DNA from: Escherichia phage 172-1 | Length of the DNA: 64,000 nt | Reading direction: 5' to 3' (one strand) | Sequence record: NC_028903.1 | Shown: positions 43 through 64,000 of the stretch, piece after piece | Numbering within the stretch: position 1 is the stretch's first letter | How the letters are laid out: the number at the start of each line of letters is the position of its first letter | Translations under genes and position numbers: made by a program | Notes under the pieces: generated by a model | Database searches by the model: none | Seen by the model: only the letters and a program-made list of their open reading frames with translations | Told to the model about the DNA's origin: nothing

Positions 43-2286
43 ATGGCTAAGCAAAAATATAGTGAAGAGGTGTTGGACGAGTTACGTGTTGACCTTCAAC
101 GTCGTTTTAATTACGCTCAAGGCTACGTAGACACAGCTGTTAAGGGCTATGCTCGTGAAGCTTGGGAATATTTCTATGGTAACTTACCTGCACCAGTAAC
201 TGCTGGCAGCTCTAGTTGGGTAGATCGTACTGTTTGGGAATCTGTTAACGGTACACTGCAAGATATTATTAACGTATTCTGTTCTGGTGATGAAGCAGTT
301 ACTTTTGTAGCTGACAACCAACAGGACTCTGATGCTGCTGATGTAGCAACTAAATTAGTTAACCAAATTCTTCTGCGTGATAATCCGGGATACAATATTA
401 TCTCCTCTGCTGCACAAGAATGTCTGGTTACTCGTAACTCTTTTATCAAATACTATTGGGATGAGCACACTTCTACTCAAACTGAAGAAGCTGAAGGTGT
501 ACCACCGGAAGCATTGGCTGCATATGTTCAGGGATTAGAAGCTGGTGGACTCAAGAATCTGGAAATCTTCACTGAAGAAAACGAAGATGGTACAGTTGAT
601 GTTAAAGTTACTTACGAACAAACTGTTAAACGTGTGAAAGTTGAATATGTTCCTTCAGAGCAAATCTTTGTTGATGAACATGCTACCTCTTTTGCAGATG
701 CACAATACTTCTGTCATCGTGTACGTCGTTCTAAAGAAGATCTGGTTGCTATGGGCTTCCCTAAAGATGAGATTGAAGCATTCAACGACTGGACAGACAC
801 GATGGATACCACTCAATCTACAGTTGCTTGGTCTCGTACTGACTGGCGTCAGGACATTGATGCTGACATTGGTACAGATACTGAAGATATCGCTACTATG
901 GTTTGGGTTTATGAGCACTACATCCGTACTGGTGTTCTAGATAAGAATAAAGAATCTAAACTCTATCAGGTTATTCAAGCTGGTGAGCATATCCTTCACA
1001 CTGAAGAAGTAACTCACATTCCGTTTGTAACCTTCTGTCCGTATCCGATTCCGGGTTCCTTCTACGGTCAATCAGTCTATGACATTACGAAAGATATTCA
1101 GGATTTACGTACCGCGTTAGTTCGTGGTTATATTGATAACGTCAACAATGCTAACTATGGTCGATACAAAGCTCTTGTTGGTGCATACGATCGTCGCTCT
1201 CTGCTTGATAACCGTCCCGGTGGAGTGGTTGAAATGGAACGTCAGGACGCTATTGATCTGTTCCCATACCATAACCTACCTCAAGGTATTGACGGCCTCC
1301 TAGGCATGTCTGAGGAGCTTAAAGAGACACGTACCGGTGTAACTAAACTTGGCATGGGTATCAACCCTGATGTGTTTAAGAATGATAACGCTTATGCAAC
1401 CGTAGGATTGATGATGAATGCTGCACAGAACCGTCTCCGTATGGTATGTCGTAACATTGCTCACAATGGTATGGTTGAATTGATGCGTGGTATTTACAGC
1501 CTTATCAGAGAAAACGGTGAAGTTCCTATTGAGGTACAAACCCCTCGTGGTATGGTTCAGGTTAACCCGAAACAATTACCAGCTCGTCATAATCTTCAAG
1601 TTGTTGTAGCCATCTCTCCTAATGAGAAAGCAGAACGTGCACAGAAACTGATTAGCTTGAAACAGCTGATTGCAGCAGATGCACAGTTAGCACCTCTCTT
1701 CGGTTTGGAGCAAGACCGTTACATGACTGCACAGATCTTTGAGTTGATGGGTATTAAGGACACTCATAAATACTTACTGCCTCTGGAACAGTATCAGCCT
1801 CCTGAGCCGTCTCCGATGGAAATCCTCCAGCTTGAGATGACTAAAGCACAGGTTGAGAACGTACAGGCTTCTTCTCAGAAGATGATTGCTGATGCATTCG
1901 ACCAGCGTGAACGTACTACATTCGAACAGCAGAAAGCTGCGGATGAATTAAGTCTGCGTCAGGAAGAGTTGCAGTTCAAGCAAGAAAATGCAGCAGATGC
2001 TATGACTCTGGAAAACCGTAAAGAAGATAACAATGCAACTCTGGAACAAGCTAAGCACAAGTTAGCTCTTATGCAACAGCAGGTCCGTCAGTATGAGTCT
2101 GTACTGAAAGAATTGCAGATGGTTATGGAACATCAGGTTGACCAAGAGAAGATTGTTCAGCAAACTCGTGTTCAGGATAAAACTTTGGAACTCCAGAAGA
2201 AAGAAGCAAATGTAACTAAGAAAGAGCAACAAGCTTCTCTCAAAGATTCACGGATTCCAGGCAAACGTCTTGGAAGTAAAAAGTAA
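43..2286 (+). CDS. portal protein (putative)
   Basis: 747-aa ORF opening the + strand morphogenesis block, directly upstream of acidic scaffold and capsid genes; charged coiled-coil C-terminal tail; call by position and size. Confidence 0.55.
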   Translation: MAKQKYSEEVLDELRVDLQRRFNYAQGYVDTAVKGYAREAWEYFYGNLPAPVTAGSSSWVDRTVWESVNGTLQDIINVFCSGDEAVTFVADNQQDSDAADVATKLVNQILLRDNPGYNIISSAAQECLVTRNSFIKYYWDEHTSTQTEEAEGVPPEALAAYVQGLEAGGLKNLEIFTEENEDGTVDVKVTYEQTVKRVKVEYVPSEQIFVDEHATSFADAQYFCHRVRRSKEDLVAMGFPKDEIEAFNDWTDTMDTTQSTVAWSRTDWRQDIDADIGTDTEDIATMVWVYEHYIRTGVLDKNKESKLYQVIQAGEHILHTEEVTHIPFVTFCPYPIPGSFYGQSVYDITKDIQDLRTALVRGYIDNVNNANYGRYKALVGAYDRRSLLDNRPGGVVEMERQDAIDLFPYHNLPQGIDGLLGMSEELKETRTGVTKLGMGINPDVFKNDNAYATVGLMMNAAQNRLRMVCRNIAHNGMVELMRGIYSLIRENGEVPIEVQTPRGMVQVNPKQLPARHNLQVVVAISPNEKAERAQKLISLKQLIAADAQLAPLFGLEQDRYMTAQIFELMGIKDTHKYLLPLEQYQPPEPSPMEILQLEMTKAQVENVQASSQKMIADAFDQRERTTFEQQKAADELSLRQEELQFKQENAADAMTLENRKEDNNATLEQAKHKLALMQQQVRQYESVLKELQMVMEHQVDQEKIVQQTRVQDKTLELQKKEANVTKKEQQASLKDSRIPGKRLGSKK

Positions 2287-2295
2287 GGACGTCGA

Positions 2296-2532
2296 ATGAA
2301 CATTAGGCATCAATTCAATAAAGAGCACGCCGCCGCTTTGGCGGCTCTCAATCTTAACGGCAGTCTTGACGCAGCATTAGAGGCATTGAAAGAAAGACTC
2401 ATGACAGAGATAGTTCAAACTGAACCTCATGAGAATAAGAAACGCGAAGATTGTTATCAAAAGTATAAAATGGTGGGTAGCTTAAAAGAGGTCATAAAAG
2501 CTGCTATCAATAGTGCAGGAGATGTTTCATAA
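2296..2532 (+). CDS. hypothetical small protein
   Basis: 78-aa ORF between portal and scaffold genes, same strand, tight spacing. Confidence 0.4.
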   Translation: MNIRHQFNKEHAAALAALNLNGSLDAALEALKERLMTEIVQTEPHENKKREDCYQKYKMVGSLKEVIKAAINSAGDVS

Positions 2533-3617
2533 TGCCACAAGATAATTATATTGACCCGAACGATTTTAAATCTTTCCTCCAACTGGATGACCTGAAAGGC
2601 TCTTTTAAAGAAGAGCTTGGTCGATTAGAATCTGAACAAGAACCAGAAGTGGACATTGACGACGAGTTCCCGGAAGATACCGGTGACAACTTCGACTTTG
2701 ATACCGACCTTCTCGGTGAAAGCGATGAGCTTAAGTTCGAAGATGAAGATGGTTGGGAAGATCATGATGAGGAAGGCGAAGTCGAAGAAGATGGGGATGA
2801 CTCTGACGAAGGTGATGAAAACACTGAAGCAGAAGAGGAAGACTCAAGCGATGCAGGATATGAAGATGATTCTGCTGACGGTGATGGTGAAGTCTTTGAT
2901 GTAGACTACGAAACCGTTATCACCCTTCCTGATGGACGTGAGATGACTATTGAAGAACTCTCCAATGGCTATCTTACTGGTGCTGACATGACTGAACGAG
3001 AATCAACTCTTCAGCGTCACATGGAAGCATTTGAGGAACGTGTAGTAGGTTTGAAGGATGTATTAGAATTAGCGTCTTTAGAAGCAGACCGAGTAATTGA
3101 AGATTACAACGGATTTGATTGGGACAAGCTTGCAGTAGAAGATCCTCAAGCATATGTTGAAAACAAACGTTTCCTAGAGAAGTACACAGCTCGTCGTAAC
3201 CAGCTTGAACAGGCTCAGATGCGTGTTAAGCAGGAAGCAGCAGCTAAAGAACAGGAAGCTTTCCAAGCCAAAAGTGTTGAGTGCGTTAATATTCTGAAAC
3301 GTGAGATTCCAAATTGGGATGAAAACTTATATCAAAACTTAATGCAATATGCAATTGACTTAGGTGCTACTGAAGAAGAAGTATTGAAGGAAAACCGTCC
3401 GTCTATTTTCCTAGCTCTCCATAAAGCATACCAATTTGATAAAGGTAAGCAGCAGGTGATGGCTAAGATTAAACGTCCCGGTGCTCCACGCAAGGTTGTG
3501 AAGTCTGATGCTGCAAAGTCTCGTACTTCCAATAAGCCAGACAACGCTAAGGTTGCCAAGGCATTCGCAGAGGGTCGCGTTAGTCACGAAGACGCATTCA
3601 AATTCCTCGTAGATTAA
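2532..3617 (+). CDS. scaffolding protein (putative)
   Basis: 361 aa, extremely Asp/Glu-rich N-terminal half, helical C-terminus, located between portal and capsid. Confidence 0.55.
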   Translation: MPQDNYIDPNDFKSFLQLDDLKGSFKEELGRLESEQEPEVDIDDEFPEDTGDNFDFDTDLLGESDELKFEDEDGWEDHDEEGEVEEDGDDSDEGDENTEAEEEDSSDAGYEDDSADGDGEVFDVDYETVITLPDGREMTIEELSNGYLTGADMTERESTLQRHMEAFEERVVGLKDVLELASLEADRVIEDYNGFDWDKLAVEDPQAYVENKRFLEKYTARRNQLEQAQMRVKQEAAAKEQEAFQAKSVECVNILKREIPNWDENLYQNLMQYAIDLGATEEEVLKENRPSIFLALHKAYQFDKGKQQVMAKIKRPGAPRKVVKSDAAKSRTSNKPDNAKVAKAFAEGRVSHEDAFKFLVD

Positions 3618-6108: not shown

Positions 6109-8667
6109 ATGATCGTTTATAATAACCAAGCACCTGATGCAGTGAATAACGTTGGGCAGTTTGGTGCTACTGAAGGCTCTATCGGAGCTTACAAGCAAGC
6201 AGCAGAATACGCAGCTGACTCCAAATATTGGGCACTGCTAGCGGAATCTAAGTTTGGTACAATTGATGACTTGATCGCTGAAGTAGAACGTCTGTATCAA
6301 CAAGGTGTTCTGATGAAGCAGGATATTGAAGATCTTAAACAAGATTTTAAAGATCAAGATGCTCGTCTTATGACCTTGATTGCCCAGACTAACGCAGCTG
6401 TTTCTGATGCGAATAACGCTGTTGCTTTAATCAATCAGAAACTTATTGAAGTCCAGAATCAGCTTGACGTTCTGTTAGGAATGTCCGTTGATGTAACCAC
6501 ACTTCCTCCGGGAACTCCGGCTACTGGTTCTTTTAATCCTAACACTGGTGTAATCTCTCTAGGTATCCCAGAAGGCGAACCCGGAAAGGATGGTTCTGTT
6601 AAGGATTTAGACACAGCTCCTACTGGTGTTCCAGAGCTAGGTGATTTAGGTTTCTATGTTGACAAAGATGACAATACCGTCCACAAAACTACTCTAGATA
6701 ACATTGCTAACTTAATCCCATCTGTTCGTTCTGTCTCTATTAACGGCGGTCCAGCTCTTGATGGAGAGGTTGCTCTAACACTTAACAAAGAGACGGTAGG
6801 TTTAGGAAATGTTCTGAACGTCGCTCAGTACAGTCGTCAAGAGATTAATGACAAATTTGACAAGACTACCAAGACATACCAATCAAAAGCAGAAGCTGAT
6901 GCTGATGCTCAGTATCGTCAAGTAGGTGAGAAAGTTTTAGTTTGGGAAGCTACTAAGTATGAATTCTATACTGTTGCTGCTAACAAAACACTGACTCCTG
7001 TTAAAACTGAAGGTAGAATTCTTACCGTTAACTCTCGCTCTCCAGACTCAAGCGGTAATATCGATATCACGATTCCAACAGGTAACCCGTCTTTGTATCT
7101 TGGTGAAATGGTAATGTTCCCTTACGACCCATCTAAGAATATCTCCTACCCAGGAGTTCTTCCTGCTGATGGTCGTCTGGTATCAAAAGAATCTGCTCTC
7201 GACTTAGGCCCATCTCTTGTCAGTGGTCAGCTTCCTGTAGTCTCTGAAACTGAATGGCAAGCAGGGTCTAAACAATATTTCTCATGGGGTAAGCTAGCAG
7301 ATGGGATTACTGATGCGGATTCTACTAATTTCATCAATATTCGACTTCCTGATTGGACTGGAGGGGAGGCAATAAGAGCACCAGATTCTGATAAAGATTC
7401 TCAATACAATGGGTCTGTACAGGCTCAGAAACCTTATGTTGTCACGGTAAATAACCAAGCTCCTGATGAGATTACAGGGAACGTAACCCTCTCCAGATCT
7501 ATCTTGGGAGCAGCTTCTTCTGGTGCAAACTCTGATATAACATCCCTGACAGGACTCACTACAGCTCTCTCTATCGCTCAAGGTGGTACAGGAGGGAAAA
7601 CTCCATCTGAAGCTAGGGCAAACCTAAATCTTGAAAGATTTCAACAAGACAACTCGCAGACTTTGATATATTCTCCTGATTATGCCCGTCGTGTTTATGT
7701 TGACAACACTGGTGGTTCTTGGGGGTGCCAGAACGTAACAGATGGCGGTTTTATTGCTCTTGGTATTCCTCAAGGGGGTACAGGAGCTAAGGATGCTGCT
7801 GGTGCACGAAGTAATCTCGGTTTGGGTTCAGTGTCCACACTAAACAATATACCCGTAGCTAATGGAGGTACTGGAGCAACTACTGCTGCTGGTGCTCGTT
7901 CCAACTTAGGTCTTGGGAGTGTTTCTACTCTGGATAATGTACCTATTGCTAATGGTGGGACAGGGGCAGCTGATGCTGCTGGTGCAAGGTTTAATATTGG
8001 AGCACTAAGTAGCACCCCAGCAAATACAGGTGTTGGTGGTACTGGTAATCGCGTCCAACATGCATCCGGGAATGGCCTGTTTACTTTAGACATGTTTAAC
8101 TGCTACTGGTATATGCAGCCAGAGGATACTAACTTCTGGGTTGCCCACAGTGTATCATATGCAGGATCTGGTGGCGAAGCCTCTGGATACGGTCGTATAA
8201 CTTACGCAATAAAGATTGCAGATGGAACAACAAAATATGTCCATTGTCTTACAAACAAAAATACTATTACCGATGTAAGCGGTTTTATCAAAGCGGCATC
8301 TCCGGTAGTTAATATTTACGCCAACGGTCGATATGAGACGAACGATGAATCTGAGGGGGTCAATGTCATTCGGCAAGGTGTCGGTGAGTATTTGATTACC
8401 GGTTGCCTAGGCTTAAACGCAGATGCAAAATGGGGAGGTATCGACGGCGGCTTTGAAATCCCTATTGACCGCAACAAACAGCCTAGGGTTTGGCTTGATT
8501 ATGAGGTTAAAGAAGATGGTTCTATTTTAGTCAAGACCTATCACAGAACCCATTCAACATCCCCAGTTTTTGCTAGAAACGAGTTGGAAGGTTTTTCTGA
8601 CGGTGACCCAATCGATATCCCTGCCGATGCTTTCGTATCAGTTCGTGTTGAAATGCCTTCTAATTAA
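6109..8667 (+). CDS. tail fiber protein
   Basis: 852 aa; tandem fiber-type repeats GGTGA..AAGARSNLGLGSVSTL(N/D)N(I/V)P(V/I)ANGGTGA in the central region. Confidence 0.6.
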   Translation: MIVYNNQAPDAVNNVGQFGATEGSIGAYKQAAEYAADSKYWALLAESKFGTIDDLIAEVERLYQQGVLMKQDIEDLKQDFKDQDARLMTLIAQTNAAVSDANNAVALINQKLIEVQNQLDVLLGMSVDVTTLPPGTPATGSFNPNTGVISLGIPEGEPGKDGSVKDLDTAPTGVPELGDLGFYVDKDDNTVHKTTLDNIANLIPSVRSVSINGGPALDGEVALTLNKETVGLGNVLNVAQYSRQEINDKFDKTTKTYQSKAEADADAQYRQVGEKVLVWEATKYEFYTVAANKTLTPVKTEGRILTVNSRSPDSSGNIDITIPTGNPSLYLGEMVMFPYDPSKNISYPGVLPADGRLVSKESALDLGPSLVSGQLPVVSETEWQAGSKQYFSWGKLADGITDADSTNFINIRLPDWTGGEAIRAPDSDKDSQYNGSVQAQKPYVVTVNNQAPDEITGNVTLSRSILGAASSGANSDITSLTGLTTALSIAQGGTGGKTPSEARANLNLERFQQDNSQTLIYSPDYARRVYVDNTGGSWGCQNVTDGGFIALGIPQGGTGAKDAAGARSNLGLGSVSTLNNIPVANGGTGATTAAGARSNLGLGSVSTLDNVPIANGGTGAADAAGARFNIGALSSTPANTGVGGTGNRVQHASGNGLFTLDMFNCYWYMQPEDTNFWVAHSVSYAGSGGEASGYGRITYAIKIADGTTKYVHCLTNKNTITDVSGFIKAASPVVNIYANGRYETNDESEGVNVIRQGVGEYLITGCLGLNADAKWGGIDGGFEIPIDRNKQPRVWLDYEVKEDGSILVKTYHRTHSTSPVFARNELEGFSDGDPIDIPADAFVSVRVEMPSN

Positions 8668-8676
8668 TTTAACAAC

Positions 8677-8695
8677 GCTCCCTTCGGGGAGCTTT
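8677..8695 (+). terminator. UUCG-tetraloop hairpin, weak terminator
   Basis: gctccc-ttcg-gggagc followed by ttt only. Confidence 0.3.
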
Positions 8696-8707
8696 AAGGA
8701 GATTTAA

Positions 8708-10915
8708 ATGGCTAGAGAATTAATGCCCAAATCTGGCATAATGATGCCTCATGTAGTTGTGACTAGAGATGCGGCAGTTGTTGGTGTTTCTACAGTAGAT
8801 GGTCAGGCAGGAGCTGTGAATCTGACTGATAAATACTTACAGAAGACAGACGCAGCTGCTACATATCAAACTAAAGTGGAAGGAGCATCTAAAGATTTTG
8901 TACTGGATTCGATTCAACCTATTATGTCTGGTGCCCTATTCAGGGAAGATCCTTGGGTTGTTAACGACACTCCTTTCCGTTCTACTGGCGCTAACGGTGT
9001 AGAGTCAGTTGATATGATGAAGGTTACTTCTGATAACTCAATCAAGATTGGTAGCTATGCCTCTTCAGTTCAAGGGGTAGAGATTCATTCTGCCGGACGT
9101 CTTCAAGTAGTAGACCAGAACGACTCTGGAGTAGAAACTAAATATCCAGTTTATTCTAAACGTTATCGCCCAGAGATTGAGGATTTGCCTTTTGCTGCAA
9201 TTGGTTCTTATGTCAAAGATTCTAAGGGTCGTACTGTTGGGGTTACTCGTACAGGGATTAACTCTGATATCAAACAACTCACACAGAAGGTTACTTTCTC
9301 TCAACCTGTAACTGTTCCTGATGCAGTTGGAGATTATGATGCAGTTACTTTGAGGCAGCTTCGTAATAGCGGTGGTGGTTCTGGTGGTCCTACAATGAGT
9401 GGCATTTCTAACTTTGGGGTTGGGGATTTTCATTTACGTGATAGTCGTGCTTTCATCCCAGCTTTTGAGGTGGTGTCTGATGGTCAGCTTTTAAACCGCG
9501 CTGACTATCCAGATCTGTGGGCTTACGCTCAGCTCTTATCCCCTATTTCTGACGAGGTTTGGAAATCCTCAATGTACAACAGAGGTAAGTACTCTACTGG
9601 CGACGGTTCTACTACTTTCCGCGTCCCTGACCGAAATGGTGTGCAGAGAAATGGTGTTAATGGCTTTACTGGTGAAGACTCTCTCGGTGCCTTATATGGT
9701 AGAGGTGATGGTGGAGGGTCTTCTAGCAATGGCCTCGTTTTTGATTCAGCAGCGCCTAATATCACTGGTTTTATTAGAACAGCTACAAATGCTTCTGTTT
9801 TCGAGTCTGGGTTAAATGGAACATCTGGTGTTTTTTATGGAGAAGAGTTTCAGAGGTATGCAAACATACAGCCAACAGAGGGGGCGACAAGCTCCTACCC
9901 AAGAACTGTCCAGTTTAATGCATCTAGGAGTAGCCCTATCTATGGACGCTCTGATGGTGAAATCATGGGTCGTAACTTTGTTGGTGTTTGGACTATTCGT
10001 GCTCATGGTGGCTTTACTGCTGCTAACACTTCTTGGTCTGTTATTAATAGTGATGCTTCAGAACAACCTTCAGGTACTCCTATTACTGGTGGATTGGTTT
10101 CTTCTAAGTATGTAGTTGGAGGTGTGGATAAGTATCGGTCTTCTATCCAGTTGATAGGGTCTAATGAAGTTGATTTATCAACTAGAATTACGACTATAAA
10201 TGATAGATATTCCATCGGGGCTGCAACTTGGGATTTTAAGTTAGATGGTAAACTTGTGTTCAACAAGAGTCTGAATCCTATGGGAACAGGGAATTCTCCT
10301 GGAAACACCTATTTAACTCTAGCTAATACTTGGATGAGTTCTTCATACGCTGGATATGTAGGGCTTGTTGGTGGTGGGGTTGGGGTTTCTAACGGAGGTT
10401 GGAGAAACTTCATTTCTTTAGGCGCTCTAATCTACCCGAACAGTGCTCACCCAACTGCTGTTATTTCTCAGGTTTATGACTATGACCTTCCTACAGGAAA
10501 TCAACCTAATGGAGATATTGTCAGAAACACCTCTTTCAATGCGGAGAGCTATGATATCACTTTCGGGAACAACAGTGGGACTACTAATTACATCTTCAGT
10601 AAATCTCCAGTCTCTGACGAGCGTCTAAAACATAGCATCAAAGAGGAGGGGACAGCCACAGCTCTTTCTAACCTAAACAAGATGGAGTATAAAACCTTTA
10701 TCTATAATTATGATGAGAAAGCAACTGTAAGGCGTGGGTTTATTGCCCAGCAACTTGAAGCTATTGACCCTCAATATGTTAGGAAGTATAAAACCTTCAA
10801 AGGTACTGATACCCTAGCTTTAGATGAGAATGTGTTGCTTTTAGATGCAATTGCTGCTATCCAAGAGCTTTCTAAAAAGGTTGAGGCTTTAGAAGCAAAA
10901 CTAGCAGAGAAGTAA
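8708..10915 (+). CDS. tail spike or fiber with C-terminal intramolecular chaperone (peptidase S74-like) domain
   Basis: 735 aa; C-terminal ~100 aa begins VSDERLKHSIKEEG and ends in a coiled coil, matching the autoproteolytic chaperone domain of endosialidase-type spikes. Confidence 0.6.
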   Translation: MARELMPKSGIMMPHVVVTRDAAVVGVSTVDGQAGAVNLTDKYLQKTDAAATYQTKVEGASKDFVLDSIQPIMSGALFREDPWVVNDTPFRSTGANGVESVDMMKVTSDNSIKIGSYASSVQGVEIHSAGRLQVVDQNDSGVETKYPVYSKRYRPEIEDLPFAAIGSYVKDSKGRTVGVTRTGINSDIKQLTQKVTFSQPVTVPDAVGDYDAVTLRQLRNSGGGSGGPTMSGISNFGVGDFHLRDSRAFIPAFEVVSDGQLLNRADYPDLWAYAQLLSPISDEVWKSSMYNRGKYSTGDGSTTFRVPDRNGVQRNGVNGFTGEDSLGALYGRGDGGGSSSNGLVFDSAAPNITGFIRTATNASVFESGLNGTSGVFYGEEFQRYANIQPTEGATSSYPRTVQFNASRSSPIYGRSDGEIMGRNFVGVWTIRAHGGFTAANTSWSVINSDASEQPSGTPITGGLVSSKYVVGGVDKYRSSIQLIGSNEVDLSTRITTINDRYSIGAATWDFKLDGKLVFNKSLNPMGTGNSPGNTYLTLANTWMSSSYAGYVGLVGGGVGVSNGGWRNFISLGALIYPNSAHPTAVISQVYDYDLPTGNQPNGDIVRNTSFNAESYDITFGNNSGTTNYIFSKSPVSDERLKHSIKEEGTATALSNLNKMEYKTFIYNYDEKATVRRGFIAQQLEAIDPQYVRKYKTFKGTDTLALDENVLLLDAIAAIQELSKKVEALEAKLAEK

Positions 10916-10919
10916 GATA

Positions 10920-10937
10920 AGCCCCTTCGGGGGCTTT
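10920..10937 (+). terminator. UUCG-tetraloop hairpin, weak terminator
   Basis: agcccc-ttcg-ggggct then tt. Confidence 0.35.
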
Positions 10938-10986
10938 AGTAGTGAGTACCCTTAGTAAGTAATGAAACTAATATATCCCAAGAGGT

Positions 10987-10995
10987 TAATATATA
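10987..10995 (+). promoter_or_regulatory. TAATATATA promoter-like motif (1 mismatch to TAATGTATA)
   Basis: 12 nt upstream of the ATG at 11008, ahead of the lysis genes. Confidence 0.25.
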
Positions 10996-11007
10996 GGAGA
11001 CAATCAA

Positions 11008-11226
11008 ATGAAAATGATGAAACAGGCTGCATACGGTTTAATCTGTTTAGGTGCAGGTGTTGTGGTGTCAACCGCAGTTCCTGTAAGCGCAGTTCATCCA
11101 TTAGTAACTGTCCCTGCTCCAGTAGAGAAGCTTAGCTCTCAATGTAAGCAGAGAACAATTCAAAATAACCTAGTTGTTATTTGTCCTGATGCTGAATCTA
11201 ACGCTCTGAGAAAGATACTACCTTAA
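11008..11226 (+). CDS. small membrane or secreted protein, holin candidate
   Basis: 72 aa with one N-terminal hydrophobic segment AAYGLICLGAGVVVSTAVPVSAV, directly upstream of endolysin. Confidence 0.3.
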   Translation: MKMMKQAAYGLICLGAGVVVSTAVPVSAVHPLVTVPAPVEKLSSQCKQRTIQNNLVVICPDAESNALRKILP

Positions 11227-11254
11227 TTTAAAGGGACTACAAAGGAGGTTAGAA

Positions 11255-11746
11255 ATGGATAACGCCGCATTGCCACCTGTACAACTAAACTTAAGCCCAG
11301 CTGGAATGGAATTCATCATGAAGCATGAGGGTATGAGAACCAAAGCTTATAAAGATTCCGCAGGTATCTGGACGATATGTGTAGGGGCTACGCGCGATAT
11401 GAATGGTTATCCGGTTAGACAAGGATTAACGTATTCTATAGAGGATTGTCTAGCTCTGCTAGATAGAGACACACAAGACTCTGTTCGTGCTACTCAGAAG
11501 AACATAAAGGTTCCTTTACTAGTTCACGAGTTTGATGCACTCACTTCTTTCAACTTCAATGTTGGCAGTGGTGCTTTGAGAACATCTAAGTTAAGGAAGG
11601 TTATCAATGGAGAAGTGAAAGGGGATGTTTATTCCGAATTTCTTCGTTGGGATAAAATAACGGTCAGGGGAGAAAAGCAGAGAAGTCAGGGTCTTCATAA
11701 CAGAAGGGTTGCAGAAGCTGATCTTTACACTGAAGGTAAATATTAA
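11255..11746 (+). CDS. endolysin, GH24 (T4-type) lysozyme
   Basis: MEFIMKHEGMRTKAYKDSAGIWTICVGAT... matches the E/D/T catalytic region and fold signature of phage lysozymes. Confidence 0.75.
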   Translation: MDNAALPPVQLNLSPAGMEFIMKHEGMRTKAYKDSAGIWTICVGATRDMNGYPVRQGLTYSIEDCLALLDRDTQDSVRATQKNIKVPLLVHEFDALTSFNFNVGSGALRTSKLRKVINGEVKGDVYSEFLRWDKITVRGEKQRSQGLHNRRVAEADLYTEGKY

Positions 11747-12571: not shown

Positions 12572-15500
12572 ATGGCGCTGTATCCAATAAAGTCACTAGG
12601 TGCTGTAGGCGTTATCGCTGATCAAGCTCCGACAGACTTAGCTCCTAATGCTTTCACTAATGCTATAAATGCTCGATTTGTTGAGCAGAGAGTATTTAAG
12701 ACGGGGGGCAATGCCCCTCTTTCTTATGTAGACGAAGATAAGGACTTAACCCCTCTGTCTTTCGTGTCTATGCCTTTCGATTATTATAGCGCAGGTAATA
12801 GCTTTCTTGTTGTAGGTACGGATAAGAAGTTATATAAACTGACAGATGAAAGCTTGACTGACATTAGCCGTAAGGTTGCTACAGTCACTAAAAAGGCTTC
12901 TGCCTCAATTAAGATTTATCCAGTTGTTTCTCAAATCGTTCCTAAAGAATCAACCATCTCAATGAACTTCAATCAGACTAAGAATCTAGAAGTTTCTCTT
13001 CTTCCTGCTGATGCTAACAATACCGATCTTGTTTGGGAGGTTAGTAATTCAACCTATGGGAGTATTACAGTAGACCCTGATGATTCTAAACTTGCTACTC
13101 TAACATCTTTTGAGAGAGAGGGTAATCTTGTAGTAACCATCTCTACTGCTGATGATTCTGTAGTGGCTCAGATTGCTGTGAACATTATAGATGGTGATTC
13201 AGGCATCTTCTTGAGTCAAGATACTGTTACTATCCGTAAAGGAGGGACTACCACTCTTACGGCTGTTACTGGTAAAACCCCTGTAACTTGGTCCAGCAGC
13301 AATGCTTCTATTGTATCCGTAACCCCTAACGCTAATTCCCTAACTGCTGTTATTGCTGCTAATGGTGAGGGCAATGTAACAATCACTGCTGATAATGGAA
13401 CGAAGACTGCTTCTTGTGAGGTTGTTTCCATTCCTCAGATTGACAGTATCACTTTAAGCCAGTCAGATGTGATAGTTAGTAGAGGTTCTCAATACATCTT
13501 AACTGCTACCCTTTCTCCTGCTAACGCCCCTAATCAAAACATTACTTGGACTTCTTCTAATCCAAATATTGCAACAGTATCAGGGACCAGCACACAAGGG
13601 ACGATCAATGCTTTACTTGCAGGCTTTACTGAGATTACGGCTACCACTGAAGAAGGTAACAGGGTTGCTGTCTGTACTGTACGTGTAGATTTAGCTGGTA
13701 GGACAATGAGAACAAGTGCTATGGCATTTGCTGCTCCTGTATCAGAGCCAATTGGATCACAAGAGGAAGAAGTAGTAACTCCACCTGAAAGTGAAGAGAC
13801 GGTTTATTTTGCTGAGCCTACGTCTGGTATTGACACATCTGGTATGTACGAAGGTAACAGCTTCTACGACTATTCTAACGTAAACGATATTGAAGGTTTT
13901 GCAAGAGCTTCTTTGTTCGCAACTCCTTTGTCATCCGTAACCTTAGATGTTGTCAGCGCTTCTCTCGATGTTGGTGAAGAGATTGTTATCACAGCTACAG
14001 CTTCTCCAGAAGGTGAGTATTCCTATCAGTGGTCTGTTGATAAGACTGGTTATGTTTCTACAACTTCAGTTACTGGTAAATCTATCAAACTGGTTGCTCT
14101 TCGTAAAGGAGAGGTTAACGTAACATGTACTGTCAGTCAGATGACTCAGAAGGATTACGATGCTTTTGATGACTATCCTTGGTATCACGCTGTTATCTCT
14201 AACTGTGCAGTTGCTACAACCCACTATGAAACTCCTCAGGTAAAAGAATTCGAATCAGAATACTTTGTAGACCTTCCGGGATGGGGTGAGCAAACAGTTG
14301 TTGATAACGATGGAAACCCTTCAGTCAAGAAGTTTAACTGGAAATGTGAGAGAGTAAGATCTTTTAACAACCGTCTTTTTGCTCTGAATATGAGAGAGGC
14401 TAATGCTTCTGGTGTTACCACTAACTACCCGCTTCGTCTTCGTTGGTCTAACTTTGCCAATGAGAACAAAGCTCCTACACTGTGGGATGACTTTGCCTAT
14501 GATCGAGTTGTGTCTTCGGACTTAGCTTCTAATATCGTAGGACAGACTCAGGCTTTGGAGAATGGGTATGCTGGTTACATTGACCTAGCGGACTCTAATG
14601 GTAGCTTGATTGATATTCTTCCTCTTAAAGATTACTTGTTCGTTTATACAGAGTTTGAAACGTATATTGGTTCTCCGACTAATAACACATACCAACCTCT
14701 GATGTTCAAGAAACTCTTTAATGACTCTGGTATCCTTGCTCCTGAGTGTGTGGTTGAAGTAGAAGGTAGCCACTTCGTAGTTACTCAGAACGATGTAATC
14801 CTACACAATGGTGCAACCAAGAAGTCAATTGCATCTAACCGTGTTAAGAACATGCTGATTAATGAGGTGTGTCTGGTTAACCCTCTAGCAACTCGAGTAC
14901 ACTTGCATCAGGATAAGAAAGAAGTTTGGGTTCTCTATGTAGGTCCGGGAGAGCCGAAAGAAAGCTTCGCTTGCACTAAAGCTGCTGTATGGAACTACGA
15001 GTTTGATACTTGGTCTTTCCGTACTATCCCTTATGCTCAGTGTATCGGTCTGGTTGATCCTCCTGTTCTAGAGAGAGGTCCAATCTGGTCTGACTTCCAA
15101 GAGATCACTTGGGATGACCCATCTATCAAAGAACTCGTTTGGAGAAAGGATGCAACAAACTTTAGACAGAGGGTTACGATAGTAGGTTCGTTCTTGAGGG
15201 GATTCTACCAAGTGGATGTAGGTGCTCTTGATTATTTCTATGACAGGTTAAATGATGTTGTTATAGAGAAGCCTCTGGAGATGAGGTTGGAGAGAACTGG
15301 TCTAGATTTTGATAATGTGACAAATGAGTGGAATCAGAAGCATATTAACAGATTCCGTCCTCAGACAACCGGCTCAGGCACTTATACCTTTGAAGCTGGA
15401 GGTAGTCAATTCTCAAATGAATATGGACACCCACACACATCTAAGACTTATACAATCGGTGTTGACAGGCATGTCTCGGTGAGACTGAACCATCCATACC

Positions 15501-58335: not shown

Positions 58336-58800
58336 TCACTCTATCTTAACTGAAGGGCAGTATTTCTCTTTCTTGCTGCGATACATCACAACAATCCAGT
58401 TTGAATCACGACGTTGCTTTTTAAGTCGTTTCTTTTCAGCACGAACTTCATATGTACTGTTTCGACGATCTCGGAGTTTGTCACGCACCTTAGATAAAAG
58501 CCACGTTGCGCCAATTATGAAACCGACTAGGCTTCCAGCAGCACCTAAACCAACCATAGGAGCAGCAAACCAAGTCCACCATACAAACGTACCTGCTGTA
58601 TCATGTCCTAGCAGTACACCACCAATAAGGCTTAACGCTGCATATACCATAGCGGATAGCACTATTAATATGGCAAAGTTTTGCACTGTTCGCCAGAAGT
58701 ATTCACAGAAGTTAGTCATGTTGTCCCAATGATAATTAGGGAGGCTTGACATGGCTTTGTTGAATTTGTGCAACCAGCCGTTCTTGTTAACCTTGATCAT
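58336..58800 (-). CDS. integral membrane protein (about 3 TM)
   Basis: hydrophobic helices FAILIVLSAMVYAALSLIGGVLLG, WWTWFAAPMVGLGAAGSLVGFIIGATWLL; basic C-terminus. Confidence 0.45.
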   Translation of the reverse strand: MIKVNKNGWLHKFNKAMSSLPNYHWDNMTNFCEYFWRTVQNFAILIVLSAMVYAALSLIGGVLLGHDTAGTFVWWTWFAAPMVGLGAAGSLVGFIIGATWLLSKVRDKLRDRRNSTYEVRAEKKRLKKQRRDSNWIVVMYRSKKEKYCPSVKIE

Positions 58801-59033
58801 TACTCACCTTTCTTGGCACGATCTTTGGCAGTTTTGCCAGTGCGGATACGATGGGAAACGTTAACCAGAGTGCCACCATCAATTACGGTAACGCTCTTGT
58901 TTTTAGCCAGATCAAACACAGTCTTCTCTGTGCCACCCAAGCGAATTTGCTTAGGCTCGCTGAAGGTTTGGGTTGATTTGGATTGGAACTGGAACGGTTG
59001 ACGGATTGCATCGATTGCGCTTACTTTAGACAT
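58800..59033 (-). CDS. hypothetical small protein
   Basis: 77-aa ORF. Confidence 0.35.
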   Translation of the reverse strand: MSKVSAIDAIRQPFQFQSKSTQTFSEPKQIRLGGTEKTVFDLAKNKSVTVIDGGTLVNVSHRIRTGKTAKDRAKKGE

Positions 59034-59264
59034 AGGGGAAATTCCTTAAAAAGTTATGGCTGCGTAGAGGGAATTCCCTACGCAAATTGGGCCGCCCACA
59101 GAGAGGCGTCATAGTACTAAAAGGAGGAGAGAAGAGGGCTTATTTAGCTACCTTTTTCTGTCCATTTACGAACCAGATAATTGAACCATCAGGCTGTCGT
59201 TGACCGAAGCCTTTCTGGTTAATCATATCGTCATAAGAATATGCTTTACGTCTCATTTATTTTC

Positions 59265-59507
59265 CTATGGAGTTAAGATAATTTCAGCCTTACTAAACTT
59301 CTCACCAACTTCAAGAGTATCAGCAACAGGACGGGGCACACCTGTACCCAAACAAACAGCCCTTCGATACCCTCCAGTCACAGGCATCATCAAATAGATG
59401 ATCTGATTATCATCTTCTTTTAAAGTGAAGATATCAGCGATCGATAGATCTTTAACAAAGAGTTTCTTTTCTTCTTCATGATGAACTTTGATATGTATTG
59501 TGCTCAT
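59265..59507 (-). CDS. small protein, paralog family A (divergent member)
   Basis: tandem array position and size; weaker motif match. Confidence 0.4.
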   Translation of the reverse strand: MSTIHIKVHHEEEKKLFVKDLSIADIFTLKEDDNQIIYLMMPVTGGYRRAVCLGTGVPRPVADTLEVGEKFSKAEIILTP

Positions 59508-59509
59508 AC

Positions 59510-59755
59510 CTACTCCTGAACAACTGACATACGAATCATTTCAACCTGTTCGTCAGCACCTTTAACACACAGCACACCTGTTAATAGATTCACTACAGGA
59601 ATCCAACCACTGGCTATACGGATGTTACCAGAGGCATTTTCAACCCTCATATAATACTGAGGGGAGGCACTTCCGTGCTGAATCACGAAAGGGTTTCCGG
59701 GAATGATTGTTTCCAATCGTACAGTATTATCCTTTTTCTTTGGGATGATTTTCAT
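59510..59755 (-). CDS. small protein, paralog family A
   Basis: VRLETIIPGNPF ... GNIRIASGWIPVV. Confidence 0.45.
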   Translation of the reverse strand: MKIIPKKKDNTVRLETIIPGNPFVIQHGSASPQYYMRVENASGNIRIASGWIPVVNLLTGVLCVKGADEQVEMIRMSVVQE

Positions 59756-60003
59756 TATGTGTTATCCACCAAAAGTTCTGCTGACACAGGAACAACTTGG
59801 CACCAGCTAGACGGTGCTGTTACGTTACCATCAGATAGACGGAGAGTGAGTACTCGATCAGAGTTAACGGTTACATTAGGACTTTCAGATACAATCCCTT
59901 TGACGTAGAGAGTATCACTCTCAGGGAATTTAAACACTGCTCCGCTGGGAAGCGCGTTGAGATCAACCTTGGTCACTTCTTCTTTCTTGTGAGTAATCTT
60001 CAT
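59755..60003 (-). CDS. small protein, paralog family A
   Basis: VDLNALPSGAVF ... GNVTAPSSWCQVVPV. Confidence 0.45.
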   Translation of the reverse strand: MKITHKKEEVTKVDLNALPSGAVFKFPESDTLYVKGIVSESPNVTVNSDRVLTLRLSDGNVTAPSSWCQVVPVSAELLVDNT

Positions 60004-60251
60004 TTAGAACCCTTAATAACGTTAGCTTCAACTTGGACAGGGATCACTTTGGTTGTTCTTAACGGACAACGTATCTTACCATTTGCTATATCAACAACAA
60101 CCATACGATCTGAGCTGACTTTTAAATACTCAGAGTAACTAGGTTCCGCAAGAATCATCACGTTATCATGAAGAGATCCCATCCGGAAAGTCTCTCCCGG
60201 TCTGATGTTCTGTAATTGGACCTGAAGAGGGTTTGGCATATTTACTTTCAT
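60000..60251 (-). CDS. small protein, paralog family A
   Basis: VQLQNIRPGETF ... GKIRCPLRTTKVIPV. Confidence 0.45.
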   Translation of the reverse strand: MKVNMPNPLQVQLQNIRPGETFRMGSLHDNVMILAEPSYSEYLKVSSDRMVVVDIANGKIRCPLRTTKVIPVQVEANVIKGSK

Positions 60252-60259
60252 ATTGATTC

Positions 60260-60571
60260 CTATTTAAGTTTGAGGCTAATGTTAAGGTGCATACATGCCC
60301 TGTTCTGTACAGCAGCATAGCTTCTACCGAGCATGTCAGCCATTCTCTGAATAGACATGAACCCAGCATTACGGATAAGGAACTGGTCTTCTTCTTTAGA
60401 CCACTTGACTCGGATTGCAGCTCTTGATATACCAAACTTAGTACAAGCTGTATTAACTGCATTCTCCGTTACATTCATAATCTGAGCAACCTCTTGAACA
60501 GAGTACTCTTTGATTAATCTCCGAAGATTTTCAATCTGCATCGGAGTCCATATAGTTCTTCGAGCTTTCAT
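60260..60571 (-). CDS. HTH DNA-binding protein (putative transcriptional regulator)
   Basis: two HTH-like segments YSVQEVAQIMNVTENAVNTA and SIQRMADMLGRSYAAVQNRA. Confidence 0.45.
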   Translation of the reverse strand: MKARRTIWTPMQIENLRRLIKEYSVQEVAQIMNVTENAVNTACTKFGISRAAIRVKWSKEEDQFLIRNAGFMSIQRMADMLGRSYAAVQNRACMHLNISLKLK

Positions 60572-60862
60572 ACATCCTCCAATTAAACATTTATATAAGA
60601 CTTGCTTAGATAAAGATTCAATAAAATAGGGGGAGGGGACGAATCCTCCCTTATCCTATTAATTAAGTTTGCATGTAAGATCTAACAATCGGTTGCCTTT
60701 GTAGGAATAAGCGTTATGCCAATCCAGCACTAAACTCCCGCCCCCTTAGTGGGCTGGGTTATTAAAGGGTAACGCCCTTATGGGCTAGTTACATGAATGT
60801 TAGTTTGATAGGAGATCTGAAGTCCTATCTCAAAGGACTCTCGTAAGAATCCTTCACGATAG

Positions 60863-61054
60863 TCACCCTTTATAGGTGGTACAGATTAATGTTGCATGTC
60901 TTTGGTTATACAGTTCGAAGTAACGAGGCTTGCTCCAGTCTCTGTCTCTGGTAAATGATTGAAGGATGAAGTGTCTGTCACATCCAAGCCACTCAGAAAC
61001 ATCCATCGCTAGACGTATAGGAGAACCTCTGAACTCTCTTCGCTCCATAGCCAC
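60863..61054 (-). CDS. hypothetical small protein
   Basis: 63-aa ORF. Confidence 0.25.
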   Translation of the reverse strand: MAMERREFRGSPIRLAMDVSEWLGCDRHFILQSFTRDRDWSKPRYFELYNQRHATLICTTYKG

Positions 61055-61386
61055 CCCTTAATATTACTTATTCATCTCTCGTCGGCTATCTCTCCAAGCC
61101 AACCAAGTGTAGGTTTTCAGCTCTTCAAAATCTTCTGGAGAGAATAGGTATTCTTTGAAGGTATCACCAAACCATTTTAAAAACTCTTCAGTCATAAAAC
61201 CTCTTAACAAGATTGATCACAAGGCTGATCTCCACATGTTTTACAGATCACTGGTGAATAACTACAGGCAGGATATACTGACACGCCATCAAACGTTTCA
61301 CACCCACAGTCAGGGCATTCTCCATTAGAAGTCATGTCATCGTCGTCATCCACTTCACCGCCACCATAACAGCTCATATGAACCCC

Positions 61387-61608
61387 TTAATAAACTAAAC
61401 CTATAGCCTTTGCGTCAGGCTGAGGGACTACTTTTGCATTAGGGCGATAGCCATCTACTGAGCCATTCCAAAGATTGACACAGGTAATATACCCATCGTT
61501 CAAGTAGTCTGTTTTAATCCAGAAGTGTTTATCATGACCAAAAATACTTCCGTTTGGCAGCGTGGACAGTTCAACAGTTTTAAGAGATTGTTTAGAATCT
61601 AATTTCAT
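61387..61608 (-). CDS. small protein, paralog family A
   Basis: VELSTLPNGSIF ... GSVDGYRPNAKVVP. Confidence 0.4.
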   Translation of the reverse strand: MKLDSKQSLKTVELSTLPNGSIFGHDKHFWIKTDYLNDGYITCVNLWNGSVDGYRPNAKVVPQPDAKAIGLVY

Positions 61609-61816: not shown

Positions 61817-62116
61817 TCACCACTCCTTACCGGTTGTAGTCGTAGAGCCACCACACCACAACGCTGTGTCAATCACAACATTGTCTGGCGTAGACTTCTC
61901 TTCATTGATAGAAGGATTAGCATTAGAGCAGGTTGCTCCATTCCAGCGCATATCAATCTCACCAGAAGGAACCTTCTCACCTTTATGCCAGCGAGATACA
62001 CAAATACCATCCACTGCTACTGCACACCATCCATCAGGACGGCTCTGTACGCAGCCTGTAAGGGCCACACAGACAAGGAAGATACAGATTAAGGATATTA
62101 CACCACCCCAACTCAT
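61817..62116 (-). CDS. Cys-rich lipoprotein, superinfection-exclusion candidate
   Basis: signal peptide with lipobox LTGC (MSWGGVISLICIFLVCVALTGC); small mature domain with several Cys. Confidence 0.5.
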   Translation of the reverse strand: MSWGGVISLICIFLVCVALTGCVQSRPDGWCAVAVDGICVSRWHKGEKVPSGEIDMRWNGATCSNANPSINEEKSTPDNVVIDTALWCGGSTTTTGKEW

Positions 62117-62135: not shown

Positions 62136-62212
62136 TGGCGCACCGTGGAGGATTCTAACCTCCAACCAATTTCTTAGAAGGAAACTGCTCTATACAATTG
62201 AGCTAACGGCGC
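62136..62212 (-). tRNA. tRNA-Arg (anticodon UCU)
   Basis: hand-folded cloverleaf: acceptor GCGCCGU/ACGGUGC, D stem GCUC/GAGC, anticodon stem GUUUC/GAAAU with loop CUUCUAA, T stem GGAGG/CCUCC with loop UUAGAAU, discriminator G and encoded CCA. Confidence 0.65.
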
Positions 62213-62220
62213 AGAATTAT

Positions 62221-62529
62221 TTATAAGGAGAAAGACTTCTTACAATCCTTCTCTTCAAAAGTGTAGTAGCCTGTTGTATCAGGGAAGTAGGCATACTTTG
62301 TTTCTTTGCCATCAATAACCATGACACGATTACCAGAAGTTGTTTCTACAAACAGAAGCCCATCTCTTACCATACCATGAGATTCTTTGATACCAGTTAA
62401 GCTATGCTCTTTAAGAGTGCATTGCTGAACACTCTGATACTTAACTCCAATCTCTGCACTATTAACAGAGATGATACCAATGGTTGTCATTAGTAGTAAG
62501 GTTGAGATGATAAAATGCTTTTGTTTCAC
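62221..62529 (-). CDS. secreted (periplasmic) protein
   Basis: N-terminal signal peptide MKQKHFIISTLLLMTTIGIISVNSA. Confidence 0.45.
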   Translation of the reverse strand: MKQKHFIISTLLLMTTIGIISVNSAEIGVKYQSVQQCTLKEHSLTGIKESHGMVRDGLLFVETTSGNRVMVIDGKETKYAYFPDTTGYYTFEEKDCKKSFSL

Positions 62530-62547: not shown

Positions 62548-62757
62548 TTAACTGAAGATACGCAAGGCCACATCATGACCTATATGACCGGGAACTTTAT
62601 GCTGCTCTATTTTCAAACAGCGTTTACAGATACGAGATACACGAGATTCTTTTCTCTCGACTGGAGTGTCTTTAGCGTGAGTGATTTGAAGATTCTCAGT
62701 GATCACCCACTCATGTTTACACTCAGAATCTTCGGGCTTTTTCTTACGGAAGAACAT
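62548..62757 (-). CDS. zinc-ribbon small protein
   Basis: C..H ... CKRC pattern in a 69-aa ORF. Confidence 0.35.
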   Translation of the reverse strand: MFFRKKKPEDSECKHEWVITENLQITHAKDTPVERKESRVSRICKRCLKIEQHKVPGHIGHDVALRIFS

Positions 62758-63051
62758 AACACCCCTTAGATTACATCACGATGACTGACTTCACCACACA
62801 CCTTACACTGGATAATGTAACGTGTGCCCTTGTCATTGTTTCCATCTGAATCTGTATAGACCAGAGGGCGAGTATTAATAATCTTCCAATCATGACAATG
62901 AAAGACACGCTTTAGCCACTTGAACATAGTTAACCTCAACTATTTACCGAAGATTCCATGCATACACATACTGAATACAATACCAAAGCAAAAACATGCA
63001 GCAGCGAATCTAATCAAGTCCCATCCAGTACACACTTCATTCATATTAACC

Positions 63052-63303
63052 TCAAGCACAAGCAGGGAGAGTAATGATTTTATACTTGCCATCAAACTCG
63101 CTAAATAAACCCAAGAATGTAGGACTGTAAGTACCAGTACAAACAAACTCATCAAACAGTTCGTTATAACTAGGCTTAATTTTCCAAGCCCATACATAAC
63201 CCATCTTGTCAATTGCAATGTAACGAGTGTTCAGAGGAACAGTCATCATCACATCATCAACTTCGATCACTTTAGTTATTGGTGCAGCTTGGAAGTTTTT
63301 CAT
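63052..63303 (-). CDS. hypothetical small protein
   Basis: listed ORF trimmed to MKNFQAAP with RBS aggagag; ATGA overlap with the upstream gene. Confidence 0.4.
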   Translation of the reverse strand: MKNFQAAPITKVIEVDDVMMTVPLNTRYIAIDKMGYVWAWKIKPSYNELFDEFVCTGTYSPTFLGLFSEFDGKYKIITLPACA

Positions 63304-63524
63304 CCTACTCTCCTGACGTTTAGGGTAGCTTGATAAAATTTGACAGGACAACTTCTGTCAAACGTAAATCTTGTTTCAGGGTTATTTATACAGATAGCAT
63401 GTCTGTGCATAACCTTCATATATAAAGGAGGTTTTGTATCCCCATCTATCTCTAGAGAGAACACATCACCATTACGTAGACTACCAAAAGTATTATCTCT
63501 AGGCTCAGAGCGGATGATAATCAT
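63300..63524 (-). CDS. hypothetical small protein (possible family A relative)
   Basis: 74 aa; FGSLRNGDVFSLE is loosely like the family A motif. Confidence 0.35.
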   Translation of the reverse strand: MIIIRSEPRDNTFGSLRNGDVFSLEIDGDTKPPLYMKVMHRHAICINNPETRFTFDRSCPVKFYQATLNVRRVG

Positions 63525-63697
63525 ACTTTACCTTTAATAAAAATGTCATTACCACAGACACAGCATGAACGAACAACAGTAGCGCCACGCTGAACGATAC
63601 GAACCTCTTCCTTAACCAGATTAACACGAGCACCACAGCAAGGGGAGTTAACATAAGAGTAACCAGCTTGTGTATTCTTGATTGTTTGCTTAGACAT
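63521..63697 (-). CDS. small Cys-rich zinc-ribbon protein (58 aa, unlisted)
   Basis: ATG with RBS aggaag; MSKQTIKNTQAGYSYVNSPCCGARVN...SCCVCGND; ATGA overlap with the downstream gene. Confidence 0.3.
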   Translation of the reverse strand: MSKQTIKNTQAGYSYVNSPCCGARVNLVKEEVRIVQRGATVVRSCCVCGNDIFIKGKV

Positions 63698-63988: not shown

Positions 63989-64000
63989 AGGTCCAATTAC

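Follow-up and report, generated by a model that had tools for sequence, protein, structure and literature searches.

Six small genes in the phiEco32-like early region of Escherichia phage 172-1 belong to a widespread family of predicted SH3-like barrels

A 64,000-nucleotide stretch of the genome of Escherichia phage 172-1 (NC_028903.1; this whole stretch is referred to as the window in the rest of the text) carries four consecutive open reading frames (ORFs) and two solitary ones, each coding for a protein of about 80 residues. This locus raises the question of whether the six ORFs, designated here A1 to A6, are copies of a single ancestral gene, how such copies are maintained, and what they might do for the phage. 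A prediction made from the letters of the sequence had regarded the four tandem ORFs and a fifth as members of one paralog family, with the last ORF as a possible distant sixth. That observation is correct, and the family is larger than the six ORFs first noticed: all six are part of a large superfamily, as yet without a name, of predicted small SH3-like beta-barrels found in virulent phages.

The window comes from a Kuravirus, that is, a phiEco32-like podophage of E. coli. A 3-kb query around the array matched 107 phage records, of which nearly all belong to phiEco32-group podophages of E. coli, with PE006 (97%, at a coverage of 84% in two pieces) and NJ01 (93%) as top matches; NJ01 and phiEco32 are both classified as Kuravirus, Gordonclarkvirinae. 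The gene order of the window is colinear with that of phiEco32. In phiEco32, the right-hand, leftward-transcribed block was assigned to the early class by experiment and is driven by sigma-70 promoters located at its far right end (PMC8948821, PMC9965538, PMC4281155). A1-A6 sit in the homologous block, in agreement with their original description as early proteins.

Homology of the six ORFs

All six ORFs are present and lie on the minus strand. A1 (59265-59507, 80 aa) diverges most within the tandem block; its phiEco32 orthologue is gp95, and it matches phrog_12612. A2 (59510-59755, 81 aa) is the orthologue of gp96 and falls into phrog_7431, which also includes gp21 of phage N4, while A3 (59755-60003, 82 aa) is the orthologue of gp97 in phrog_7832. 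A4 (60000-60251, 83 aa) corresponds to the gp98 slot and matches phrog_7832 at an E value of 2.7e-24; the first slot of the array, which it occupies, is hypervariable and lies immediately downstream of a gene coding for a helix-turn-helix (HTH) regulator, and only two close clusters were found for A4 in the database. The two solitary genes, A5 (61387-61608, 73 aa; phrog_6570) and A6 (63300-63524, 74 aa; phrog_10911), are the orthologues of gp104 and gp109, respectively. Genes A1-A4 are separated by gaps or overlaps of 0-4 nt, and stop and start codons overlap, as in TAAATG and TAATG. Every one of the four is preceded by a Shine-Dalgarno sequence.

Family membership had been proposed from a shared motif, V-x-L-x-x-[LI]-P-x-G-x-x-F, and from an N-terminal MK. 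The literal motif occurs in A3 and A5 and is missing from the other four ORFs. Once relaxed, the motif is found in A2-A5 and also in one unrelated ORF, with 0.8 chance matches expected, and A1 has an Ala instead of the Gly at the motif position. The N-terminal MK does not extend to A1, which starts with MSTIHIK. Pairwise Smith-Waterman alignments evaluated against shuffled sequences gave a similarly mixed result. Only the pairs A3-A4 (z 9.9) and A3-A5 (z 5.3) were clearly significant; A2 was marginal against the others (z about 3), A1 was linked to A6 alone (z 3.8), and the remaining pairs were insignificant.

Profile methods confirmed the homology of all six. PHROG models cross-link A2, A3, A4 and A5. 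An iterative hidden Markov model (HMM) search of 1412 six-frame ORFs, taken from the window and from the early regions of seven relatives, converged on 60 proteins, all of which are annotated genes on the coding strand and which include all six window ORFs. When each orthologous group was left out of the model in turn, its window member was still recovered, with E values of 1e-7 to 8e-4 for A1, 5e-9 for A2, 1e-12 for A3, 1.1e-9 for A4, 1.5e-12 for A5 and 1e-6 to 2e-5 for A6; unrelated ORFs gave E values of about 1. An independent profile made exclusively of 71 distant relatives, each less than 35% identical to any kuravirus member, likewise retrieved A2 (7.7e-17), A3 (2.5e-16), A5 (7.9e-14), A4 (6.4e-13), A6 (1.6e-6) and A1 (2.3e-5), compared to 0.45 for the next-best ORF of the window. 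A6, the tentative sixth copy, is thus a real member, and the six ORFs are confirmed as bona fide genes of one homologous family.

Predicted fold and extent of the family

AlphaFold2 models were obtained for the most typical copy, A3 (predicted local distance difference test score, pLDDT, 86; predicted template modelling score, pTM, 0.73), and for the least typical one, A1 (pLDDT 89.2, pTM 0.77). Both are predicted to form the same six-stranded, all-beta, SH3-like barrel with identical strand order, in which long N- and C-terminal strands pair around four short strands and which spans the entire chain. A search of BFVD with A1 returned as neighbours the same phage proteins as a search with A3, namely small, uncharacterised proteins from many phage groups, including N4 Gp21 and PaP3 ORF65. 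PaP3 gp70.1, an RpoS binder considered by way of the latter, proved to be an unrelated 131-aa protein. The window proteins follow a core pattern, MKI...-L..L..G.vF-...YMK-...V.L.tG-...V.PV...L, with one or two deviating positions in A1 and A6. In an alignment of 178 members, good conservation is confined to the columns M1, I3, L15, L18, G21, V23, F24, Y33, M34, V54, L56, G59, V70, V73 and L77, and no conserved Asp, His, Cys, Ser or Glu was found. Only semi-conserved are two surface-type positions, a K/R at column 35 (71%) and an N at column 55 (48%), and length varies most in the segment between strands 3 and 4. Since the conserved columns are hydrophobic or Gly and no polar residue is conserved, the pattern points to a structural scaffold and not to an enzyme.

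A profile search of 1.84 billion representative proteins, clustered at 50% identity, yielded 330 clusters at E<=1e-3, nearly all of them 67-90 aa long and matching end to end. Natural two-domain fusions occur in P0129, P0178, P0188, P0222 and P0235, and about six repeats in P0181; a scan for fusions with an informative partner domain found none. P0181 is the only one of four long repeat matches that looks like genuine tandem family domains. The three others, P0105, P0133 and P0155 (796-1858 aa; E 1e-6 to 1e-12), are short partial matches to what are probably unrelated beta-rich repeats, which indicates that profile hits to such a short domain of hydrophobic pattern need a full-length check. 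A third homologous-protein search added few distant members, two metagenomic members lie on phage-like contigs amid small genes of unknown function, and a single-protein locus scan returned only five viral loci.

Existing databases hold this family in pieces. PHROGs splits it into at least ten families, phrog_7832, 7431, 6570, 12612, 10911, 8365, 16423, 9955, 34455 and 29867, all labelled 'unknown function'. The window proteins are full-length matches to their PHROGs (E 1e-24 to 1e-41), and distant relatives cross-hit several of them. Searches of Pfam, NCBIfam and PDB sequences with the six proteins and 124 relatives gave nothing meaningful and no solved structure of any relative, and the unity of these PHROGs as one superfamily is unrecorded in PHROGs, Pfam and NCBIfam. 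A literature search by PHROG identifiers found no paper mentioning these families, nor are the paralogs mentioned in the kuravirus papers cited above. Searches by tblastn with the distant representative P0125 and with N4 gp21 gave no matches across groups, and BLAST is therefore blind to the family as a whole.

Two members from other phages are not joined to the kuravirus copies by BLAST. N4 gp21 is a true member (E 2e-14 to 8e-16) that matches phrog_7431, the PHROG of A2, at 2.2e-24, and so is gp7 of the Pseudomonas phage LUZ24 (E 1.3e-11; phrog_8365). Both resemble the kuravirus copies in length and predicted fold. Unlike the multi-copy kuraviruses, LUZ24 and the first 22 kb of N4, the part of that genome searched, yielded one copy each.

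The original prediction had proposed an inspection of related phages for variation in copy number, and such variation is extensive, with 4-11 copies per genome. We counted six copies in PE006, seven in IMEP8, eight in Paul, ten in KM01 and 11 in EP335, and nine each in phiEco32, NJ01, SU10, KBNP1711, Ptacy1532 and one IMG/VR contig. Among Grimontviridae, PKM.Lu.22.1 has six copies and Salmonella phage 7-11 has four. Three to five of these copies make up another tandem array (phiEco32 gp113-115 and neighbours), which in the related genomes is located 1.5-3 kb upstream of A6; in 172-1 it would lie just past the end of the window at position 64000.

Fold relatives include the C-terminal domain of ribosomal protein L2, EF-P domain I/KOW, FeoA, the C-terminal domain of DtxR/IdeR, Tudor/PWWP domains and the VapX antitoxin, and the window proteins matched none of the KOW, Ribosomal_L2_C and EFP_N sequence models. 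Canonical Sm/LSm/Hfq proteins were rejected as relatives: they possess an alpha-helix at their N terminus and five bent strands, and the Sm1/Sm2 motifs were not found. A DUF2829/Tad2-type anti-Thoeris sponge, considered for a similar 'L..G..v' motif at its N terminus, was dismissed after no match to Pfam DUF2829 was obtained.

Among described families, that of T4 GoF/MotB.1/Frd.2 comes closest, being alike in fold only (Kim et al. 2025, PMC12152347). There, too, a virulent coliphage encodes several paralogs that have diverged in sequence, all of them small early proteins that are dispensable and without an assigned wild-type function (PMC12152347). The T4 proteins also adopt a bent anti-parallel beta-barrel with FeoA and SH3-like domains of the DtxR/IdeR type as closest PDB neighbours. 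Unlike the T4 proteins, which have 119-141 aa, a flexible linker and an extra C-terminal domain, the window proteins are single domains of 73-83 aa, and their family reaches 6-11 copies per genome and extends over many phage groups. Homology to GoF and MotB.1 was rejected, as family HMMs scored about 0-1 bit, hhalign gave probabilities of 0.6% and 0.3%, and no PHROG was shared even at E<=1.

Old duplications and turnover of the gene set

The paralogs are approximately 20-30% identical in amino-acid sequence, and a repeat scan found no DNA-level repeat between copies. This absence of DNA similarity indicates that the duplications are old. Paralogs are present in Grimontviridae and in other phage families as well, and the expansion is older than the split between Gordonclarkvirinae and Grimontviridae. 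The ratio of nonsynonymous to synonymous substitution rates (dN/dS) ranged from 0.04 to 0.21 in nine of ten orthologue groups (0.20 for A1, 0.13 for A2, 0.10 for A5 and 0.085 for A6), showing that each copy is kept by purifying selection. The proteins had been called fast-diverging, a description that does not hold for such ancient duplicates under constraint within orthologues; what changes quickly is which gene cassettes are present, above all in the A4 slot.

A5 and A6 are conserved like their neighbour genes, and the A1-A4 block is more mosaic. A3 is absent from PE006 and SU10, A5 from IMEP8, and A6 from PE006, IMEP8 and Paul. The A4 slot is either empty in relatives or filled with one of three mutually divergent variants. 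PE006, although 97% identical to 172-1, is devoid of A3, A4 and A6. Comparison with this closest relative revealed an exact two-gene insertion/deletion: the A4+A3 cassette (59756-60246, minus strand) is present in 172-1 and absent from PE006. By blastn, positions 59000-59755 match PE006 at 95.5% and positions 60247-60700 at 98.2%; in PE006 these stretches adjoin each other (about 12743-12747), in accordance with the two-piece coverage of 84% given above. The start codons of A2 and of A4, ATGAAA in each case, are where the breakpoints fall, and this suggests that cassettes are gained or lost by recombination at conserved translation-initiation regions. A ribosome-binding site (RBS) motif of the TATTAAGGGG type recurs before several neighbouring genes (repeat families D3 and D4).

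Another variable slot of the early operon lies downstream of the gp93 homologue. It holds a gene for a 154-aa membrane protein in 172-1 (58336-58800, minus strand), phiEco32 and SU10, an extra family member in EP335 (10200-10442) and KBNP1711 (10117-10359), and a 71-aa ORF in Paul and PE006.

The six ORFs are flanked by the HTH regulator gene and, further downstream, by an amidoligase/ATP-grasp cluster. The regulator, annotated as a 'D5-like transcriptional regulator' and homologous to phiEco32 gp99 (60260-60571, minus strand), contains two Sigma70_r4_2-like HTH stretches at residues 18-41 and about 63-90. Its gene lies directly upstream of the downstream family array in every kuravirus examined, and a terminator-like hairpin (60650-60631) lies just upstream of it. 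The cluster of amidoligase, COOH-NH2 ligase, glutamine amidotransferase and ATP-grasp genes, at about 50-57 kb of the window, is common to phiEco32-like phages, 7-11 and LUZ24 (7377-11434), a Pseudomonas phage that is otherwise unrelated and whose early region also holds one family member.

Four genes for small Cys-rich proteins of 57-69 aa with paired CxxC motifs and the look of zinc ribbons (61204-61377, 62548-62757, 62766-62939 and 63521-63697, all on the minus strand) are found in the same region, two of them directly abutting A5 and A6. In P0190, a metagenomic relative of 172 aa, the family domain is fused to a Cys-rich C-terminal tail. This fusion and the adjacency to A5 and A6 give a weak hint of a functional link between the Cys-rich proteins and the family. 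Also within the early operon, a tRNA-Arg gene (anticodon TCT; 62136-62212, minus strand), annotated likewise in phiEco32, IMEP8, Paul, EP335 and Ptacy1532, lies between a lipoprotein gene and the next small ORFs. The putative lipoprotein (61817-62116, minus strand; lipobox LTGC) is homologous to phiEco32 gp106, a 'putative phage lipoprotein', and a second signal-peptide protein of 102 aa is encoded at 62221-62529 (minus strand; phrog_23590); both may be candidates for superinfection exclusion or receptor blocking. Rfam searches and promoter and terminator scans revealed nothing tied to the family.

Possible functions of the copies

The copies had been interpreted as host-takeover or anti-defence effectors with different targets, which is a reasonable inference and no more; this interpretation is plausible but only partly supported. 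The proposal that we favour, and which we regard as evenly balanced between right and wrong, is that each copy is a binding module without enzymatic activity, which has its own partner and an accessory role that depends on the host. An old expansion brought the family to 6-11 copies per genome in phiEco32-like phages, placed as two tandem arrays and two solitary genes within a sigma-70-driven early operon; of these, the window carries one array and both solitary genes. The conserved hydrophobic core would display differing loops, above all the stretch between strands 3 and 4, and each copy would bind a different partner stoichiometrically. This partner would more probably be a protein than a nucleic acid, since isoelectric points (pI) range from 5.2 to 9.6 among the six copies and 61% of the distant members are acidic (median pI 5.3), making a common nucleic-acid-binding role less likely. 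The role may be accessory and dependent on the host strain, for instance counter-defence or modulation of a host factor, and would be neither an essential step nor a lethal shut-off of the host. An accessory role is suggested by copy sets that vary between genomes (6, 7, 8, 9, 10 or 11) and by the lack of three of the copies in PE006.

Unlikely, but the best placed of the alternatives, is that the proteins are RNA-binding barrels of the Sm-like (LSm)/KOW type. Early in infection, these would act on transcripts of the phage or the host by modulating their stability, termination or translation, a role that has been proposed for the T4 GoF family. The acidity of most members and the lack of a conserved basic or aromatic surface patch speak against it, as does the absence of any sequence or profile link to GoF or MotB.1. 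Furthermore, the A1 and A3 models have neither an N-terminal helix nor Sm motifs, and wild-type GoF itself is reported to be without an effect on RNA.

The paralogs could instead be subunits of one hetero-oligomer, such as an Sm-like ring or a set of heterodimers, and not independent effectors. Sm-like barrels often oligomerise, the genes of the array are translationally coupled, and the two-domain fusions and the roughly six repeats of P0181 described above would fit such an assembly. However, subunit sets differ among close phages, single genes are lost cleanly, and one copy each was found in LUZ24 and in the searched part of N4, as on other phage-like contigs, so that we consider this explanation improbable.

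About equally improbable, and if anything slightly less likely, are toxins for host shut-off or takeover that act against essential machinery, for instance RNA polymerase, replication or cell division. The early gene cluster is assumed in the literature to hold host takeover genes, and the UvrD Tudor/SH3-like domain and KOW domains, which were among the structure hits (7egs_B, Spt5), contact RNA polymerase. When 13 early proteins of LUZ24 were expressed in P. aeruginosa, gp7, the only experimentally screened homologue that we identified, was not among the four growth inhibitors (PMC4635203), which argues against a lethal host shut-off. In addition, gp36 and gp79 were all that accompanied RNA polymerase purified from cells infected with phiEco32 (PMC12276001), making stable binding of RNA polymerase by the family unlikely, and natural isolates dispense with individual copies.

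Finally, the notion that the ORFs are unrelated and resemble one another by chance or composition, to which the insignificance of most pairwise alignments and the occurrence of the literal motif in only two ORFs might lend weight, is already refuted by leave-one-out and independent distant-profile E values reaching down to 1e-17, by the recovery of coding-strand annotated genes only among 1400-3400 six-frame ORFs, by the agreement of two structure predictions and by purifying selection on the copies.

Several observations weigh against the proposal of non-enzymatic modules with copy-specific partners. The SH3-like fold is not ligand-specific, and many of its neighbours (L2, EF-P, KOW, Tudor, PWWP) bind RNA, DNA or modified peptides. 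Three of the six copies, A2, A4 and A6, are basic (pI 8.9-9.6), and the semi-conserved K/R of column 35 and N of column 55 could mark a common ligand instead of a diversified one. The non-toxicity of LUZ24 gp7 may not carry over to the kuravirus copies, as this homologue is distant and its screen was done in another host. The early timing of A1-A6, although supported, was taken over from homology to phiEco32, and a literature search found no functional data for phiEco32 gp95-gp109 or for the toxicity of kuravirus early genes.

A bolder extension of the favoured proposal, which we hold only tentatively and think doubtful, is that the family is a phage 'binder scaffold', a rigid mini-barrel that would have been diversified into stoichiometric inhibitors of different host defences or factors, its cassettes being shuffled by recombination at RBS-ATGAAA gene starts. 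If this were true, the 330 or more clusters, spread over many groups of virulent phages, would hold anti-defence proteins in large and so far unexploited supply, and a good part of the small early ORFans would be accounted for. Should the copies do nothing measurable, they would be an ordinary accessory gene family.

What has been delimited is a widespread, unnamed superfamily with an unusual copy number in phiEco32-like phages. No new mechanism is shown, and the family is a solid but fairly ordinary example of phage accessory genes. No part of phage genomes is understood less well than the small early ORFans. The family brings together at least ten PHROGs of 'unknown function', N4 gp21, LUZ24 gp7 and as many as 11 genes in a kuravirus genome under one confidently predicted fold, thereby giving a single handle on many unannotated genes. 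Presence/absence variants among near-identical phages provide a natural knock-out series, and if the copies are indeed diversified inhibitors, the family would be worth exploiting for proteins that counter defence or modulate the host.

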